Shown here: positions 3,770 to 42,695 of the stretch, piece after piece
How positions within the stretch are numbered: position 1 is the stretch's first letter
Layout of the letters: each line of letters opens with the position of its first letter
Virus record (IMG/VR): IMGVR_UViG_3300045988_022668
Location: 1-43,719 of that record
Strand: one strand, 5' to 3'
Origin: a virus
DNA: 43,719 nt
The notes under the pieces: generated by a model
Seen by the model: only the letters and a program-made list of their open reading frames with translations
The model's database searches: none
Told to the model about the DNA's origin: nothing
Program-made: the position numbers and the translations under genes

Positions 3770-4267
3770 TCACTTTCCGCGCTCCGCGATGCCGTGGTAG
3801 TACGCCGCCATCTTGGCCCGGGGGCCGCCGGCATCGCGATCAAAGAGGAAGGCCTTGGCCATGTCGGCGTAGAACTCCGCCGTGCCGACGCCGTACCGGT
3901 TGGCGACGCCGCAGTAGTCGGAGTACATCATGCACATGGCAGCCCACCAGCACCAGGGGGAGAGCTGGTCGAAGATCACGCCGACACTCTCGGCCACGGC
4001 GGTGGTCTGGTCGACAGTCCAGTGCGGCCCGAAGGTGCCATCCTCGTTGACCATCTTAGAGCACCAGGCCTCGGCATCGGCCTGGGTGAAATCAGCACCG
4101 CCACCGCAGAGAGACTGCTCAGCTGCATCCACTACAGACCAGCACTCCAGCATCCCGCGGACACCGTTAGCGGAGCGCTCCCCCGCAGGCATCCCCATGT
4201 ACTCGGCAATGCCTCGCTCCAACTTGTCCTTGTAGGCGGTGATGATCTCCTTGGTCAGGTAGCCCAT
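3770..4267 (-). CDS. Hypothetical Trp/Cys-rich protein (165 aa), last gene of the accessory operon
   Basis: G-rich SD before the ATG. Motifs NEDGTFGPHWTVDQT and SPWCWWAAMCMMYSDYCG. No family assigned. Confidence 0.65.
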   Translation of the reverse strand: MGYLTKEIITAYKDKLERGIAEYMGMPAGERSANGVRGMLECWSVVDAAEQSLCGGGADFTQADAEAWCSKMVNEDGTFGPHWTVDQTTAVAESVGVIFDQLSPWCWWAAMCMMYSDYCGVANRYGVGTAEFYADMAKAFLFDRDAGGPRAKMAAYYHGIAERGK

Positions 4268-4280
4268 AGTCTACCCCCCG

Positions 4281-4682
4281 TCAGATCCGCTGGACCCGCA
4301 GGGCCACGTTGTTGACGGTGGCAGCGGCGCCGGTCAGCACCAGCGTCAGAGCGGAGCCGGCGGCGCAGCAAGCCTGACGTACCAGCGCCGGGAAGCTGAG
4401 GACAGTGGGGGCGCCCGCAGCAGCGGCAGCGGATGCCGTGGCGCCGGGGATGGCCACGCCGTCCTTGACCAGCGTAGCGGTGACGGTGCCGGCAGCGGTG
4501 GGAGCCACGGTGACGGACACGTCCACGTCATAGTAGCCGGCATTGGTGATGTTGACCGCATTGCCGTTGAGGTTGGCGTCGCAGCCGTACCGGCGGATGA
4601 TGCTGCCCAGCGGGATGACCCCATCAACGGCCACGGCCGTGGGGGTCTGCAGGGCGGTATAGAGAGCAGATTTACAGGACAT
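4281..4682 (-). CDS. Hypothetical Ala/Val/Thr-rich beta-type protein (133 aa) starting MSCKS, with RRYGC and QACCAAG
   Basis: AAAGGAG SD. Composition and size resemble jellyroll spore-surface/appendage-type subunits (tentative). Confidence 0.65.
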   Translation of the reverse strand: MSCKSALYTALQTPTAVAVDGVIPLGSIIRRYGCDANLNGNAVNITNAGYYDVDVSVTVAPTAAGTVTATLVKDGVAIPGATASAAAAAGAPTVLSFPALVRQACCAAGSALTLVLTGAAATVNNVALRVQRI

Positions 4683-4709
4683 ATTTATACGCTCCTTTCA
4701 TAATGTCAA

Positions 4710-4731
4710 GGGCGGGGCATCAGCCCCGCCC
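4710..4731 (-). promoter_or_regulatory. Intercistronic GC hairpin (GGGCGGGGC-loop-GCCCCGCCC)
   Basis: 9-bp perfect stem between the 198-aa and 133-aa genes, followed by only UU on the minus strand. Could be a partial terminator or an mRNA stabiliser. Confidence 0.4.
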
Positions 4732-4780
4732 GTTTCCCGGCCTAAAGGGGCCTACCATCTCGGCGATGTCGCCAAGATGC

Positions 4781-5377
4781 TCAGATGTTGCCGTTGCAGC
4801 CGCCGCAGCCGCAGAAGGGGGACGGACCGGCGTTGTAGGCGTAGCCGTTGGGATACCGGACGACGCCATACATGCGGTTGTCCATCTCCAGGCTGGCGAT
4901 GCGGGCGGACTGCTCCGCGATCCGCTGCTCCAGCTGGCTCTTCTCCAGGGCGGCGAACTTGGCCTCCATGTTGGCGTTCACGCCGTCAATGGCCCGCTGG
5001 GTGGTGCAGCAGCACTCGGCAAGCTGGGCCTGGATGCCATTGGCGCTCTGCATGATGGCCATGTTGGTGCCGTTCTGGGCCAGGGCCATCTCCTTGCCAA
5101 GCTGGCCGATGTTGCCCTGCATCTCGTAGCCGAGGTTACAGATGCCGTTGCCAATGTTGGTGAGGCGGTCGTTGAGCTGGCCGAACTGCTGTCCGTAGAG
5201 GATCTCCTGCTGAGATGCGGCCGTGGCGTACTGGCCAAACTCGCCCTGGCGATTCCAGCCAAATCCGCCGTTCATGAAGACGAGGAAGAGCAGGATGATC
5301 CACCAGCCGCTATTGCCACCCCAGCCGTCGGCGTCCTTGGTCACGGCGGCGAGATCAGAGAGGGAATAGTTATCCAT
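4781..5377 (-). CDS. Hypothetical single-pass membrane, coiled-coil, Cys-rich protein (198 aa)
   Basis: AAAGGAG SD. TM segment WWIILLFLVFMNGGFGW. Gln/Asn-rich helical region. ECCC motif and C-terminal FCGCGGCNGNI. Confidence 0.65.
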   Translation of the reverse strand: MDNYSLSDLAAVTKDADGWGGNSGWWIILLFLVFMNGGFGWNRQGEFGQYATAASQQEILYGQQFGQLNDRLTNIGNGICNLGYEMQGNIGQLGKEMALAQNGTNMAIMQSANGIQAQLAECCCTTQRAIDGVNANMEAKFAALEKSQLEQRIAEQSARIASLEMDNRMYGVVRYPNGYAYNAGPSPFCGCGGCNGNI

Positions 5378-5426
5378 ATAAGGCTCCTTTCGCTAAATTT
5401 TTATTGATAAACCGTGTCGACCCGGC

Positions 5427-5648
5427 TCATCTCAGGAAACGTGCGAACTCCTGCGCCTGGCGCTGGAGCTGCTGGAACTGATCCTGGCTCATGCGGCCGT
5501 CGGCCAGCATCTCCTGGATCTGCTGCTGGGCCCGCTGCGGCGTCATGCCGGCGGCAAATTTGCGGAACTCCGCGATCATGGCCAGGGGATTGTTACTCGG
5601 CCTTGGGCTTGCGCTGCGGCTTAGCATCTCCATCATCGGATTTGCCAC
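5427..5648 (-). CDS. Hypothetical Gln-rich helical protein (73 aa, GTG start; alternative ATG at 5579)
   Basis: GGAGGAG lies 8 nt upstream of the GTG. Overlaps the upstream gene by 56 nt in another frame. Confidence 0.45.
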   Translation of the reverse strand: MANPMMEMLSRSASPRPSNNPLAMIAEFRKFAAGMTPQRAQQQIQEMLADGRMSQDQFQQLQRQAQEFARFLR

Positions 5649-5985
5649 TCAGCATCTCCTCCAATCTGCGCACGCGATCCTCCAGACTGTTGACATCCAC
5701 CGGAGCCGCCGCCTGGTAGGGCGCCACGGTGTACGGGGTGACGGTGGCATAGCCAGCGCCGTCCGTCTGCTTGAGCCACACGATAGGGTCGTTCTCGTCC
5801 ATCAGCAGGATGGAGCTGTTAGGGGCCATGCGGAAGGCGTCAGCGCCATTGCGGCCGTTGACGCGGGTAATCTGACCCCCGAAGGGCTGCGGCCCTCCTA
5901 CGGGGCTCTGAGGGCCCACAGAGGGGTATCCGCCGTAAGGGCTGCCATACGGCGACGGCTGGTAAGGGTTGTTGTAATATCCCAT
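5593..5985 (-). CDS. Hypothetical protein with Pro/Tyr/Gly-rich N-terminus (130 aa), first gene of the accessory operon
   Basis: AAGGAGGTG SD. N-terminus YNNPYQPSPYGSPYGGYPSVGPQSP, a central beta-like core, and a charged coiled-coil tail. Confidence 0.7.
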   Translation of the reverse strand: MGYYNNPYQPSPYGSPYGGYPSVGPQSPVGGPQPFGGQITRVNGRNGADAFRMAPNSSILLMDENDPIVWLKQTDGAGYATVTPYTVAPYQAAAPVDVNSLEDRVRRLEEMLSGKSDDGDAKPQRKPKAE

Positions 5986-38735: not shown

Positions 38736-39326
38736 TTACAGCTCCTCCCAGCGGAATCTACCTTTCCCGCTGTTCCGCCACTGGCCGATGCCGGAAAAAC
38801 GGCCATAATCCAGCCACTCCCGGACGGCCTTCTCGTGATCGTCGCAGAGGCAGACAACGGTAAACTCGCACGTCGCCCCGGCGGGAATCTCCTCGCTCAT
38901 CGCAAGGCTGATGCGTTCACCCTGCGCCGTCTGCGCTCTCAGAGGGCGCTGACACTCACCGATTTTGCCATCAAACAGGAGAGGAATCGTTCTGGGCTCC
39001 GGGAAAATCAGCTTGTCGATTTCTTTCTTGTACGCCTTGATCTTCTCGCTTGCGGTCCCTTTCACCTTGCGAAGGCCGCCGCAGGTATCCTTGAAAAATC
39101 CCTTGATCTGGTAATCGTAGAGGAACGGCGTGCCATCATCCAGACGGGGGAATACCGTCATGCCCTTATCCGCCACAGCGTCAGCACCAAGAGCGGCGAC
39201 CTCATCCTCCACGCTCAAAGCGTCCGGGCTTTTACTGCCGATAAACTCCCGATAAACCTCAGGATTGGCCGGAGACGTCCCCAAGATGGGCTCCGTAAAT
39301 GTCAGATTGACCTTGATCTCCTTCAT
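38736..39326 (-). CDS. Hypothetical protein (196 aa) with RAMP-like sequence features
   Basis: AGGAGGA SD. MKEIKVNLTFTEPILGTS start, YQIKGFFKDTCGGLRK and C-terminal GIGQWRNSGKGRF Gly-rich loop (GhGxxxxxGxGxF pattern). Confidence 0.7.
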   Translation of the reverse strand: MKEIKVNLTFTEPILGTSPANPEVYREFIGSKSPDALSVEDEVAALGADAVADKGMTVFPRLDDGTPFLYDYQIKGFFKDTCGGLRKVKGTASEKIKAYKKEIDKLIFPEPRTIPLLFDGKIGECQRPLRAQTAQGERISLAMSEEIPAGATCEFTVVCLCDDHEKAVREWLDYGRFSGIGQWRNSGKGRFRWEEL

Positions 39327-39863: not shown

Positions 39864-40066
39864 TTTTCGTCCTCCTCTACCCACACGACCCGATACTTAG
39901 AATGGCTCGTATGCTTTGCCTTTCCTCTCCGGCTAATAGCGGCGGCTACCGTGCCGCCGGTAACGCCAGCGATTCGGGCCAGCTCATCCATGGTATCCGT
40001 AACCGCAAGGGGTAGCTCGTACTCATCTTGGGAAACCAGCAGATACAGGGGCTTGCAACTATTCAT
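39860..40066 (-). CDS. Small HTH-like protein (68 aa)
   Basis: Start at MNSCKPLY, overlapping the upstream stop by 8 nt. DTMDELARIAGVTGGTVAAAISRRGK is HTH-like. Confidence 0.5.
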   Translation of the reverse strand: MNSCKPLYLLVSQDEYELPLAVTDTMDELARIAGVTGGTVAAAISRRGKAKHTSHSKYRVVWVEEDEK

Positions 40067-41141
40067 AGGCCACCCCAATAAAATCCAGCACTCTGGCGTA
40101 GCCCAAGCCCTTTTCAGTGGGCTTCCAAAAGCCGTCCGCCGGGTCGAAAGCGCCGCCTCCAACGCAAAAATCGTAGTGGCGGGGGTGAGTATGCTTCATC
40201 CTCTGGAAGCGATTCTCTCCCTTCTCCAGGTGCGCCCCGAAGCCGCAGAACATACAGCCCGTACGCTGACAGCCGGTACACCGGAGCGGTTGCTCCGTCA
40301 GGGTGCTGGTGTACTCGTTCTCTCCGTCGCTGGCCACAATGTCGCCGTAGACGCTGCAATAGGGGATCTCAGCACCAACAAGGTAGTGGAGCACGTCCTG
40401 CTCCGTCCAGAAGCTCATGGGCTTTCCCATCGGGCGCTTGCCGTCAAAAGCGTTACAGCCTGACGCCCGCCATTTCTGCATCCGTTGACGGCCTTCCGTC
40501 GCCATCGTCGCAACAATCGGCTTGTCCTTTGTTCCGCTTTCGTAGCGATGTAGTGTCCGTTTTTTCATCACACGACAGCATTCCGCAGAAATCAGATACG
40601 GAGCGTCCATCAGGAACTCCCAGTTGTCGCAGCAGTATGGGCTTTTTCGGCCATCTGGCGTCAGCAGCTCTCCGCGTATCCGCTTCGCTCTGGTCCCATC
40701 CGGGTCTCTCCGGGCCAGCCACACGCAGTTTGATACCTCTTTGCTCACGATGCTGTACCCGTATTTCGCCACAACCTGCCGGATGTTCAGCTTTGGCCGC
40801 AGACGGGCGAGATTGACCGCGACATGTGGGAACTCCTGCCGCAGCCAGCCAGCATAGTCGTTCACAAAGTGCTGGATTTCCGGATACTCCAGGCCCGTGT
40901 TAACGAACACCAGATTCAGCGGCCAGGGCGGCGTCCGGTAGCTGGCAAGATACCGGGCCACAAGGTAAGCCAAAACCGTGGAATCCTTGCCGCCGGAAAA
41001 GCTGACGTAGCACTTCCCGCCCCAGGCAGTGTACCATTGGTCGATCTTCTCCCAGGAGGCCAAAATCTTGTCCTCCAGCAGCAGCGCTAAGAGTGCCTTC
41101 GCCCGCTCGGGAGATATGGGGTCGTTATGCCATCCGGTCAC
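40059..41141 (-). CDS. PAPS-reductase/PP-loop ATPase family protein (IbrA/DndC-like), 360 aa, GTG start
   Basis: PP-loop SFSGGKDS. C-terminal Cys cluster CTGCQRTGCMFCGF...C. The GTG at 41141 overlaps the stop of the 58-aa ORF (GTGA). Confidence 0.8.
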   Translation of the reverse strand: MTGWHNDPISPERAKALLALLLEDKILASWEKIDQWYTAWGGKCYVSFSGGKDSTVLAYLVARYLASYRTPPWPLNLVFVNTGLEYPEIQHFVNDYAGWLRQEFPHVAVNLARLRPKLNIRQVVAKYGYSIVSKEVSNCVWLARRDPDGTRAKRIRGELLTPDGRKSPYCCDNWEFLMDAPYLISAECCRVMKKRTLHRYESGTKDKPIVATMATEGRQRMQKWRASGCNAFDGKRPMGKPMSFWTEQDVLHYLVGAEIPYCSVYGDIVASDGENEYTSTLTEQPLRCTGCQRTGCMFCGFGAHLEKGENRFQRMKHTHPRHYDFCVGGGAFDPADGFWKPTEKGLGYARVLDFIGVAYE

Positions 41142-41314
41142 CCTTTCCCCATCTCCTTCCTGATATCCCGCAGAGCCGCCAGGTAGCCTTCCCACCAGAT
41201 AATGCCCGTCGGGTGCTGCTCCATCAGGTACGGAGCGCCCTTCTGCGTCCTGGCGTAGTTTTCCATAGCGTCCAGCTTTGCCATAAGCTTGTCCTTCGTC
41301 GGGTTCCGGCTCAT
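41138..41314 (-). CDS. Small hypothetical protein (58 aa), below the ORF-track cutoff
   Basis: GGAAGGAGGAG SD. ATGA overlap with the methylase stop and GTGA overlap with the next start. Sequence MSRNPTKDKLMAKLDAMENYARTQKGAPYLMEQHPTGIIWWEGYLAALRDIRKEMGKG. Confidence 0.55.
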   Translation of the reverse strand: MSRNPTKDKLMAKLDAMENYARTQKGAPYLMEQHPTGIIWWEGYLAALRDIRKEMGKG

Positions 41315-42603
41315 GTGTGCTCCTCCTTCCAGGGCAATTCCCAGTCCGGAGCCCGAACCTGGAAGGCGTCGCCAAGCTGAATGGTCTCAGGATAGTTGTG
41401 CTGGGTGGTTGCGATAGCGTACTTGTCGATCTCGGTAGCGTAGTAGGCGGAAACGTCCGCGCCCAGCTTACCCAGGGCGATGTGACCGCAGCTCATGCCA
41501 TCGTACATAGATAGCACTTCCACCGGCTCCGCGGTCAGCCCATCGAAATGGCTCATAATATGGGCGATCACGTCCACGGTCCAGCCGTTGCCCAGCATTT
41601 TATATGCCTGGGTGTCGCTGACGGGGAAGGCGTATGTGTCCGGCACAGTCTGGAGGCGTTTACACTCGGTCACGGTCAGTTTGCGGATAATGTAGCAACC
41701 GTCTCGCAGTTTAATCGGGTATCGCTTGCCTTTAATGGCGATAAAGCCGTCGCGAACTTCGTATACGGGCCACGCTTTCCCATCCGGGCCGTCGACCGGC
41801 GTTGCATAAAGGCCCGTCTTGGCTCCCAGCCCCCCGCCGTTTCCGCAGAGGGTCACGCTCCTTCCGTCCGGCGAATAGACGCGGTATTGCTGGCTGTCAT
41901 GGTCCGGGTTCTTCGCGTCATTCTCGATAGTGCCGATGCGTACTGGTTCCGCGCAAATGTTATACGGAACGCCGCGATGCACATTTGCGGTGATGCAAAG
42001 CGCTTTGTCTGCCTCCCCTGGCTTTTGCAGATATGTCCAACGGTCGGAGTATTTGCCATGCGAGCCAACCATGTAATCCATTTCTCGCTCAGTCAGAGGA
42101 TTGATGGCAACGGGCTCCGCCACACCCATATAGCCAAAATGCCCATTCGTTTCGATGTGTCGCAAAACATTTGACACACCCTGTTTTGTCGCCGCGCTCG
42201 CTCTCAATGTGTACGCTTTCTCATGCCACGTCACAGCACCGCTTTCCAAAATGTCCCGCAGAAGGATACCACGGCCATCCGGCTGCTCCACGGGGACCTG
42301 GCTGTAGGTGCCGTCTGGGTTACGCTTGCCCACCCAATACAGGCGCTGGCGGTTCTGTGCGCTCACCAGGGCGCTGTTAATCAGGACAGGCTCCACGCCC
42401 AGCTCCGCCGTAATCTGTTCCCGGATAGCGGGGGACATGGATTTGTTGTTCTCATAGAGGAAGTAGTCCGGTTTGTATTTGTCGCGGGCAATGCGGTAGT
42501 TCAGGAACAGTTCCCAGCCGATGCCCTCCGCTTTGGTTTCCCTGTTTTTAGTCTGAGCGATACTCCAATGCGTGCAGGGCGAACCGCCGATTAAAAGCTT
42601 CAT
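41311..42603 (-). CDS. DNA (cytosine-5) methyltransferase with circularly permuted motif order (430 aa)
   Basis: Start MKLLIGGSPCTHWS (motif IV) after GAGGGGGGAG. Then YENNKSM (VI), SAQNRQRLYW (VIII), RKLTVTECKRLQTVP (IX), MLGNGWTV (X), and finally VLSMYDGMSCG (I), YATEIDKYA (II), IQLGD (III) at the C-terminus. Confidence 0.8.
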   Translation of the reverse strand: MKLLIGGSPCTHWSIAQTKNRETKAEGIGWELFLNYRIARDKYKPDYFLYENNKSMSPAIREQITAELGVEPVLINSALVSAQNRQRLYWVGKRNPDGTYSQVPVEQPDGRGILLRDILESGAVTWHEKAYTLRASAATKQGVSNVLRHIETNGHFGYMGVAEPVAINPLTEREMDYMVGSHGKYSDRWTYLQKPGEADKALCITANVHRGVPYNICAEPVRIGTIENDAKNPDHDSQQYRVYSPDGRSVTLCGNGGGLGAKTGLYATPVDGPDGKAWPVYEVRDGFIAIKGKRYPIKLRDGCYIIRKLTVTECKRLQTVPDTYAFPVSDTQAYKMLGNGWTVDVIAHIMSHFDGLTAEPVEVLSMYDGMSCGHIALGKLGADVSAYYATEIDKYAIATTQHNYPETIQLGDAFQVRAPDWELPWKEEHT

Positions 42604-42695
42604 CTCCCCCCCTCGATCCTGTCGATGAGCCGGAACACCCAGCTCGTGGCGGTAGAGGCCCCGATGATGACCAGCGCCAGCGTATATCCATCCAT
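42549..42695 (-). CDS. Possible small membrane peptide (48 aa), below the ORF-track cutoff
   Basis: GAGGAGGA lies 8 nt upstream of the ATG. MDGYTLALVIIGASTATSWVFRLI is hydrophobic. The 3' 55 nt overlap the methylase start out of frame. Confidence 0.3.

Follow-up and report, generated by a model that had tools for sequence, protein, structure and literature searches.

Cytosine-5 DNA methyltransferases are a textbook example of a fixed motif order, and the natural enzymes known to break it are those of the M.BssHII group and the plant DRM enzymes. Here we describe a virus gene that departs from this order at a different point of the chain. The gene lies on the minus strand (41311..42603) of a 43,719-nucleotide stretch that we refer to below as the window (IMG/VR record IMGVR_UViG_3300045988_022668, positions 1 to 43,719), and it encodes a protein of 430 amino acids in which the motifs run IV-VI-VIII-TRD-IX-X-I-II-III, TRD being the target-recognition domain. 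Judged by its sequence, this protein is very probably a genuine single-chain cytosine-5 methyltransferase, predicted to be active, that carries a natural circular permutation. Its chemistry and role are likely those of an ordinary cytosine-5 methyltransferase, with the chain topology as the natural variant.

The natural permuted cytosine-5 methyltransferases M.BssHII, M.Alw26I, M2.Eco31I, M.Esp3I, and M2.BsaI are grouped as Type H (PMC5944983). Albert et al. screened 20,677 REBASE sequences in 2018 and recovered 27 natural permuted enzymes, and in every natural permuted cytosine-5 methyltransferase that they found the break lies in the variable region (PMC5944983). Type H enzymes and the window protein are alike in being single-chain prokaryotic cytosine-5 enzymes in which motif X is followed by motif I, the ancestral termini having been joined. 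The N terminus of Type H, however, falls after motif VIII and before the TRD, which gives the order TRD-IX-X-I...VIII (PMC5944983), and a first-pass annotation of the window had rightly noted that M.BssHII is broken elsewhere. In the window protein, motifs IV-VIII occupy residues 2-90 and do not follow IX-X; the break separates III from IV, the catalytic half is N-terminal, and the only part moved to the C terminus is the beta1-beta3 unit that binds S-adenosylmethionine (AdoMet). The 2018 screen would have missed this family, because its members have SMYDGMS at the motif I position and do not satisfy the search pattern used there.

The plant enzymes DRM1 and DRM2 represent the other exception. 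They are eukaryotic, carry ubiquitin-associated (UBA) domains, and run from motif VI to X and then from I to V, with the break between V and VI. In DRM2, the ENV motif (E312-N313-V314) lies early in the catalytic domain and the catalytic loop (592-595) near the C terminus (PMC8172135), positions that fit this order. The window protein resembles these DNMT3-like enzymes (4onj/4onq, 7l4c) in that motif X, the linker, and motifs I-III match plant DRM chains as one contiguous piece, residues 327-413 aligning with DRM2 195-281. It differs from the DRM order in that both its Pro-Cys (residues 9-10) and its ENN (residues 51-53) are N-terminal.

The topology of the window protein is the same as that of the engineered Type C enzymes cpM.MpeI and cpM.SssI, whose N terminus was placed between III and IV and which kept detectable activity (PMC5944983). 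The difference is that Type C was made in the laboratory, while the family described here is natural, diverse, and widespread. Active permutants of M.HaeIII with starts between II and III and between III and IV were reportedly evolved by Peisajovich et al. in 2006.

Among enzymes of other chemistry, the class-beta amino-methyltransferases (M.PvuII, M.RsrI, CcrM, and M.EcoGII) have the order IV, TRD, I, as does the window protein (PMC7544214). The window protein thus has the linear order of class beta but, with GGSPC, lacks its (D/S)PP(Y/F) motif IV; class-beta enzymes act on exocyclic amino groups, whereas the window protein has a cysteine nucleophile, and there is no detectable sequence relationship beyond the shared fold. 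The best sequence matches in the PDB are DNMT3A, DNMT3B, and DNMT3C (E about 1e-14), which likewise have a motif I of the FDGxxxG type and a motif VIII that reads SAxxRxRxxW; they differ in having the canonical order, a eukaryotic origin, regulatory domains, and a much shorter TRD. The multispecific cytosine-5 methyltransferases M.SPRI and M.Phi3TI of Bacillus phages have the canonical I-X order and are comparable in being phage-borne, with no cognate nuclease gene seen nearby; close relatives of the window protein, with 2-4 tandem TRD modules between VIII and IX, resemble them.

A natural cytosine-5 methyltransferase permuted between III and IV was not found described in the literature that we searched, REBASE lying outside that search and earlier recognition being possible, and as far as we could establish this order has so far been reported only for engineered cytosine-5 enzymes. 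On balance, it is somewhat more likely than not that this is the first recognized natural cytosine-5 class with a III/IV break, which gives it the class-beta topology; all stages of a duplication route would then be on view within one clade. If so, the family would contradict the published generalization that natural cytosine-5 permutation is confined to the variable region, and it would represent a third natural topology, one that is abundant in gut prophages. It would also mean that a break already known to be viable from laboratory evolution and design is tolerated by the fold in nature as well, and it would place canonical, tandem-fused, truncated, and permuted relatives side by side for work on the evolution of protein topology. 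These enzymes could then be used to probe how relocation of the AdoMet unit affects cofactor affinity and oligomeric state, a question similar to the one that Albert et al. posed in 2018 for the Type B topology, which is broken between II and III (PMC5944983).

Motif order and alignments

The gene, its putative ribosome-binding site, and the motifs along the chain are as follows (window positions; residue numbers are those of the 430-residue protein).

41311..42603, minus strand: permuted cytosine-5 DNA methyltransferase, complete gene, 430 amino acids plus TGA (open reading frame [ORF] list, translation, Pfam)
42604..42614, minus strand: Shine-Dalgarno-like purine run GAGGGGGGGAG, which abuts the ATG (by eye from the sequence)
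42562..42600, minus strand: motif IV, KLLIGGSPCTHWS, residues 2-14, aligned to LVIGGSPC of DNMT3B
42574-42576, minus strand: predicted catalytic nucleophile Cys10, within motif IV
42436..42468, minus strand: motif VI, DYFLYENNKSM, residues 46-56, with ENN for ENV, aligned to FENV of DNMT3B
42334..42375, minus strand: motif VIII, SALVSAQNRQRLYW, residues 77-90, QxRxR, aligned to SAAHRARYFW of DNMT3B
41716..42321, minus strand: variable or target-recognition region, flanked by motifs VIII and IX (residues about 95-296)
41806..41895, minus strand: TRD core module SQQYRVYSPDGRSVTLCGNGGGLGAKTGLY, residues 237-266, which occurs one to several times in relatives of 527-643 amino acids and is retained in the A1 consensus
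41632..41694, minus strand: motif IX, YIIRKLTVTECKRLQTVPDTY, residues 304-324, overlapping the M.HhaI match given below
41545..41613, minus strand: motif X, TQAYKMLGNGWTVDVIAHIMSHF, residues 331-353, on DNMT3B 262-282 and the C terminus of M.HhaI
41524..41544, minus strand: linker DGLTAEP, residues 354-360, between the X and I blocks
41473..41523, minus strand: motif I, VEVLSMYDGMSCGHIAL, residues 361-377, predicted AdoMet-binding loop of the DNMT3-like FDGxxxG type, aligned to IRVLSLFDGIATGYLVL of DNMT3B/3C (residues 4-56)
41413..41451, minus strand: motif II, SAYYATEIDKYAI, residues 385-397, with acidic E391, aligned to YIASEV of DNMT3
41356..41388, minus strand: motif III, ETIQLGDAFQV, residues 406-416, aligned to GDV in DNMT3A and in canonical relatives
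41314..41355, minus strand: C-terminal tail RAPDWELPWKEEHT, residues 417-430, the former III-IV linker according to the re-permuted alignment

The only Pfam match of the protein is PF00145 (E=1.9e-27, 97 bits against a cut-off of 22), and this match is split over three stretches. The pieces found by phmmer in the PDB are likewise out of order: residues 3-154 match DNMT3B 82-233 (motifs IV-VIII), residues 331-351 match DNMT3B 262-282 (motif X), and residues 358-402 match DNMT3B 10-56 (motifs I and II), while residues 307-351 match M.HhaI 272-316 (motifs IX and X). When the last 124 residues were used alone, their I-II part found the start of the DNMT3 catalytic domain (residues 4-56, E about 6e-7) and their IX-X part found the C terminus of M.HhaI (272-316, E 2.6e-6). 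Moreover, with residues 353-430 placed in front of residues 1-120, the sequence becomes collinear across the junction with the canonical relatives P0148, P0159, P0169, and P0156, which are 60-70% identical to it in motifs IV-VIII, and a single 7-residue gap suffices. In this re-permuted alignment, the tail and Met1 fall in the III/IV linker with an excess of 7 residues. Both the alignments and this collinearity place the termini in that linker, which connects motif III (GDA, residues 411-413) to strand beta4 (KLLIGGSPC). The protein therefore has the features by which a cytosine-5 methyltransferase is recognized (the profile, the Pro-Cys of motif IV, the Glu of motif VI, the arginines of motif VIII, and motifs I-III and X), and it lacks the canonical linear order I-X.

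These results bear out most of the first-pass annotation, which had proposed a single uninterrupted ORF at exactly these coordinates (the strand, which it left unstated, is minus), a strong Shine-Dalgarno sequence before the start (the purine-rich run at 42614-42604), the motif order given above, new termini at the III/IV junction, and a short linker from X to I, which measures about 7 residues. Every peptide that it quoted is present in the translation, the split and out-of-order match that it expected from Pfam and M.HhaI was obtained, and the C-terminal block, which it allowed might prove unrelated to motifs I-III, is the one that matches the start of the DNMT3 domain. Two details needed correction: the tail that follows ...IQLGDAFQV has 14 residues rather than 17, and ordinary enzymes do not pass directly from GDV to GGSPC, as the canonical relatives have about 15 residues in between.

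Conservation and structural model

Conservation was assessed in an alignment of 45 permuted members that reaches down to 45% identity to the window protein. Invariant in all 45 are E51, N52, Q83, R85, R87, N339, W341, S365, Y367, D368, G369, E391, and G411, as well as Y304, E313, and P321 of motif IX, A413 of motif III, and R417 of the tail; G6, G7, S8, P9, C10, and D412 are each conserved in at least 90% of the members. Since the invariant residues include some in each part, both the catalytic half and the relocated cofactor unit appear to be under constraint. The start of the family (MK[IL]LIGGSPC) and its end are both conserved. Canonical relatives, too, have ENN in motif VI and a DNMT3-like YDGxxxG in motif I, which makes these variants traits of the clade and not signs of decay.

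An AlphaFold2 run on the monomer with the 45-member alignment, a check that had been proposed beforehand, gave a predicted TM-score (pTM) of 0.76 and confident motif-bearing regions, the means of the predicted local distance difference test (pLDDT) over ten-residue blocks being about 89-98 in most of residues 21-110 and 311-420. The modeled secondary structure fits beta4-alphaD-beta5-alphaE-beta6-beta7 in the N-terminal part and beta1-alphaA-beta2-alphaB-beta3 in the C-terminal part. Foldseek matched the model to M.HhaI (E 3e-12), DNMT3A/B/C, M.HaeIII, M.MpeI, and NtDRM; these alignments are sequential, so that the TM-scores of 0.44-0.57 understate the fold match and cannot reveal the permutation. 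The best viral structural model among the matches bears the generic name 'Cytosine specific methyltransferase'.

We propose that the chain would start at beta4 and present motif IV with Cys10, then motif VI (Glu51), motif VIII (Arg85 and Arg87), the TRD, and motifs IX and X, and that the C terminus would supply the AdoMet-binding beta1-beta3 unit (motifs I-III) last. By packing on the N-terminal IV-VIII unit, this C-terminal unit would rebuild the usual seven-stranded fold, in which Cys10 would attack a flipped-out cytosine at C6 and AdoMet would donate its methyl group to C5.

Distribution of the permuted family

An ENA scaffold and a Logan contig both carry the same 430-residue ORF with the same neighbors, and near-identical proteins come from JGI, ENA, Logan, and NCBI. 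A word-indexed homologue search returned at least 8000 matches, of which the best 120 were typed by segment-wise BLAST, and all 120, at 63-100% identity, have the permuted order. An exhaustive search of representatives clustered at 50% identity yielded 9064 proteins at E<=1e-3, of which 1721 reach E<=1e-30; the best 150 of the 9064 comprise about 75 permuted, 44 canonical, and 35 partial sequences and 2 tandem doubles. When bacterial genomes were scanned, one per species, 551 loci were confirmed, 80 of which were kept, and 69 of the 71 ORFs in these that could be classified by motif pattern are permuted. Permuted loci occur in cultured isolates such as Flavonifractor sp. An92, Pseudoflavonifractor sp. 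524-17, Oscillibacter sp. 1-3, Acutalibacter caecimuris, Robinsoniella peoriensis, Butyricicoccus pullicaecorum DSM 23266, and Criibacterium bergeronii, and the remaining species-genome loci are mostly from metagenome-assembled genomes (MAGs) of Oscillospiraceae or other Clostridia. The permuted family is large and mostly prophage-borne in Clostridia.

Within the GenBank phage collection, a collinear permuted copy is found in only three records (H1-H3). One of them is Phage nd4 (L001, OR777945.1), where a permuted 558-residue coding sequence with two TRD modules at 3998-5674 is labeled 'hypothetical protein'. Further tblastn matches in isolated phages (Vibrio, Bacteroides, Pseudoalteromonas, and others), whose two or three pieces together seem to cover the query from its first residue to about residue 425, were set aside because the tool joins pieces in whatever order they occur and only H1-H3 are collinear; the shortest of these footprints, about 180 codons, fit a canonical I-III followed by IV-VIII.

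Were this topology established, the annotation of such proteins would deserve care. Order-dependent models under-score permuted proteins, TIGR00675 being an example, and existing phage protein families already hold the permuted junction unrecognized, because phrog_17284 and phrog_16427 both span the passage from X to I. The first of these, annotated as 'unknown function', is the best PHROG for the window protein, with profile positions 70-240 (of 245) on residues 215-381, a stretch that takes in the TRD, motifs IX and X, and the first part of motif I; the second covers IX-X-I-II contiguously.

One locus of a MAG of an uncultured Clostridia member (L020) has two permuted ORFs back to back on the same strand, with starts near 2998 and 4231.

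Target recognition modules and inteins

The window protein has one clear module of the 'TL...GGG...KTGLY' type (residues 237-266) and about 110 poorly modeled residues. Five relatives of 527-643 amino acids (P0017, P0019, P0059, P0072, and P0108) have near-identical catalytic cores and one to four tandem TRD modules, which are of the 'SQ..R.YS..GKS.TL...GGG...TGLY' type and of other kinds; the main difference between close relatives and the window protein is the presence of one to three extra modules. This suggests that target recognition is modular and possibly multispecific. In another relative, P0043, a portion of the motif IV-VIII region is duplicated internally.

In 13 canonical representatives, an insertion of about 150-380 residues is located inside motif IV. 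Pfam finds a Hint/intein splicing domain in the insert of four of these (P0157, P0161, P0172, and P0189) and of three permuted members with an intact start (P0150, P0226, and P0258), and a LAGLIDADG endonuclease domain in 5 of these 7 inteins; P0163 and P0176 were recognized as canonical carriers from the junction sequence only. The intein site lies between the Pro and the catalytic Cys (...GGSP|CFVAGT...VVHN|CT.WS), and in the permuted members the N-extein is as short as about 10 residues (MKRILIGGSP). Two further relatives, P0147 and P0204, seem to begin inside the intein.

Origin of the permutation

The permutation may go back to two canonical genes brought together in frame by fusion or duplication, after which motifs I-III would have been lost from the first copy and IV-X from the second, and it probably happened once, at the base of what is now a large family. 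This route had been put forward in the first-pass annotation, which asked for tandemly duplicated relatives, and such relatives exist: P0125 (962 amino acids) and P0249 (618 amino acids) each consist of two complete canonical enzymes of the clade, fused in frame. P0268 (556 amino acids) reads TRD-tail-IX-X-linker-I...X, like a fusion that has lost the 5' part of its first copy. Together, the three match the intermediates that duplication followed by truncation requires and thus support the proposed route, short of proof. The region 3' of the methyltransferase stop was also considered as a possible remnant of a second gene copy, and this was rejected, as the 58-residue ORF there has no methyltransferase similarity.

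In a neighbor-joining tree of re-ordered core blocks from 60 permuted and 42 canonical representatives, the two groups separate cleanly, mean identity being 61% within the permuted group and 52% to the canonical sequences. From these sequences, a single origin of the permutation appears likely.

Alternative explanations

Several observations weigh against the reading of an active, singly derived, permuted methyltransferase. The protein scores 81 bits with NCBIfam TIGR00675, under the cut-off of 100.65, a shortfall that is probably due to the permuted order and is expected for a split match. The TRD (residues 122-217) is poorly modeled, with pLDDT below 50 at 122-126, 128-142, and 155-217, and the packing of I-III against IV-VIII within one chain is read from the confidence scores of the model. 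As regards the origin, the tandem fusions are analogues of the intermediate and not demonstrated ancestors, and the exact split into permuted and canonical sequences was recovered in only 80 of 200 bootstraps, so that a single origin is moderately supported; this instability was traced to eight divergent canonical sequences and not to scattering of the permuted ones. Finally, with regard to the role, we infer from the position of the gene in an early operon, just downstream of a Cro-like regulator, and from the lack of a nuclease gene among its immediate neighbors that the enzyme would methylate phage DNA and so protect it against host restriction, but the screen for nucleases covered only genes near the locus, which limits what can be said about this role.

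The alternative that survives best, although we consider it unlikely, is that the protein is active only as a domain-swapped dimer in which motifs I-III of one chain complete motifs IV-X of its partner. Class-beta amino-methyltransferases with the same linear order have been described as active only as dimers (PMC7544214), fragments of cytosine-5 methyltransferases split between II and III complement each other in trans (PMC5944983), and according to their entry titles DNMT3A/B have been solved as oligomers, such as a homotetramer and a homo-hexamer. The AlphaFold2 model of the monomer, however, is confident in both units. In canonical structures of the M.HhaI type, motifs X and I lie side by side, and given this adjacency the 7-residue linker would be enough for closure within one chain. 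Engineered single-chain permutants of Type B and Type C are, moreover, active (PMC5944983).

It is very unlikely that the gene is a decaying remnant, that is, the 3' part of one methyltransferase gene fused to the 5' part of the next, inactive and persisting by chance or for a noncatalytic role such as DNA binding. The departures that might be taken as decay, ENN for ENV in motif VI and YDGxxxG for FxGxG in motif I, are also present in canonical relatives, and the key residues of both halves are invariant or nearly so down to 45% identity. A remnant would also fit poorly with the size of the family and its diversified TRD modules, and with the inteins that some members still host at the catalytic Cys.

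Similarly improbable, in our view, is an origin by fission and re-fusion, in which a canonical gene was broken at III/IV, perhaps via an intein, and rejoined in reverse order. A LAGLIDADG intein does lie about 10 residues from the permutation point, in canonical and permuted members alike, but the two sites differ: the intein is inserted between Pro9 and Cys10, whereas the new N terminus lies before beta4, with MKxLIGGSP preceding the intein. In addition, the in-frame tandem fusions and the partly truncated form fit the duplication model, and no I-III gene standing apart beside a IV-X gene was seen, no search having been aimed at one.

An assembly artefact would mean that the phage lacks this ORF and that assembly created it by collapsing a tandem duplication or wrongly joining two canonical genes. 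Such an event is conceivable given the tandem fusions (P0125 and P0249) and the adjacent genes at L020 but is effectively refuted, as the first-pass annotation's concern about mis-assembly is answered by the recurrence of the identical ORF and its neighbors on separate ENA and Logan contigs, by near-identical proteins from JGI, ENA, Logan, and NCBI, by the shared order of homologues, hundreds in number, in independent assemblies and isolate genomes and of a member in a sequenced phage, and by the start and end conserved across the family.

Genomic neighborhood

The methyltransferase ORF runs from ATG at 42603-42601 to TGA at 41313-41311, and three neighboring features on the same strand are closely joined to it.

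42600..42695, minus strand: 31-residue upstream ORF (gene call on L082/L083 in window coordinates)
41138..41314, minus strand: 58-residue downstream ORF (ORF list, gene call)
40059..41141, minus strand: phosphoadenosine phosphosulfate (PAPS) reductase-like (PP-loop) gene, next in the operon (phrog_424, E=1.5e-42; 360-residue gene call)

The stop of the upstream ORF shares an ATGA with the methyltransferase start, and the methyltransferase stop shares another with the start of the 58-residue ORF; a PHROG search gave no match for either small ORF. All belong to a tight minus-strand operon that comprises a Cro-like helix-turn-helix gene, three small ORFs, the methyltransferase gene, the 58-residue ORF, and the PAPS-reductase-like gene and continues with MazG-like, Gam-like, and Erf genes, an HNH protein, a single-stranded DNA-binding protein (SSB), and DnaD/DnaC-like replication genes. 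The phage is temperate and siphovirus-like, probably a prophage of gut Clostridia, and the locus forms its early region. A 196-residue ORF (38736-39326, minus strand) with no PHROG match separates the MazG-like gene from the Gam-like one.

The PAPS-reductase-like gene is translationally coupled to the methyltransferase gene via the 58-residue ORF, with a 4-base overlap at each junction. A functional coupling of the two was considered and set aside, as related loci do not conserve the adjacency: a strict PP-loop pattern, which may be too strict, was positive in 1 of 80 related loci, and that one is a canonical methyltransferase locus.

A longer version of the methyltransferase, starting at ATG 42747 and adding 48 codons, was also rejected. 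Homologues begin with MK[IL]LIGGSPC, and the extra codons overlap other small ORFs and have no similarity to motifs I-III. The gene callers for the ENA and Logan contigs choose the 430-residue start, and the nr record of the window's protein (P0002) starts 48 codons too early, at 478 rather than 430 amino acids.

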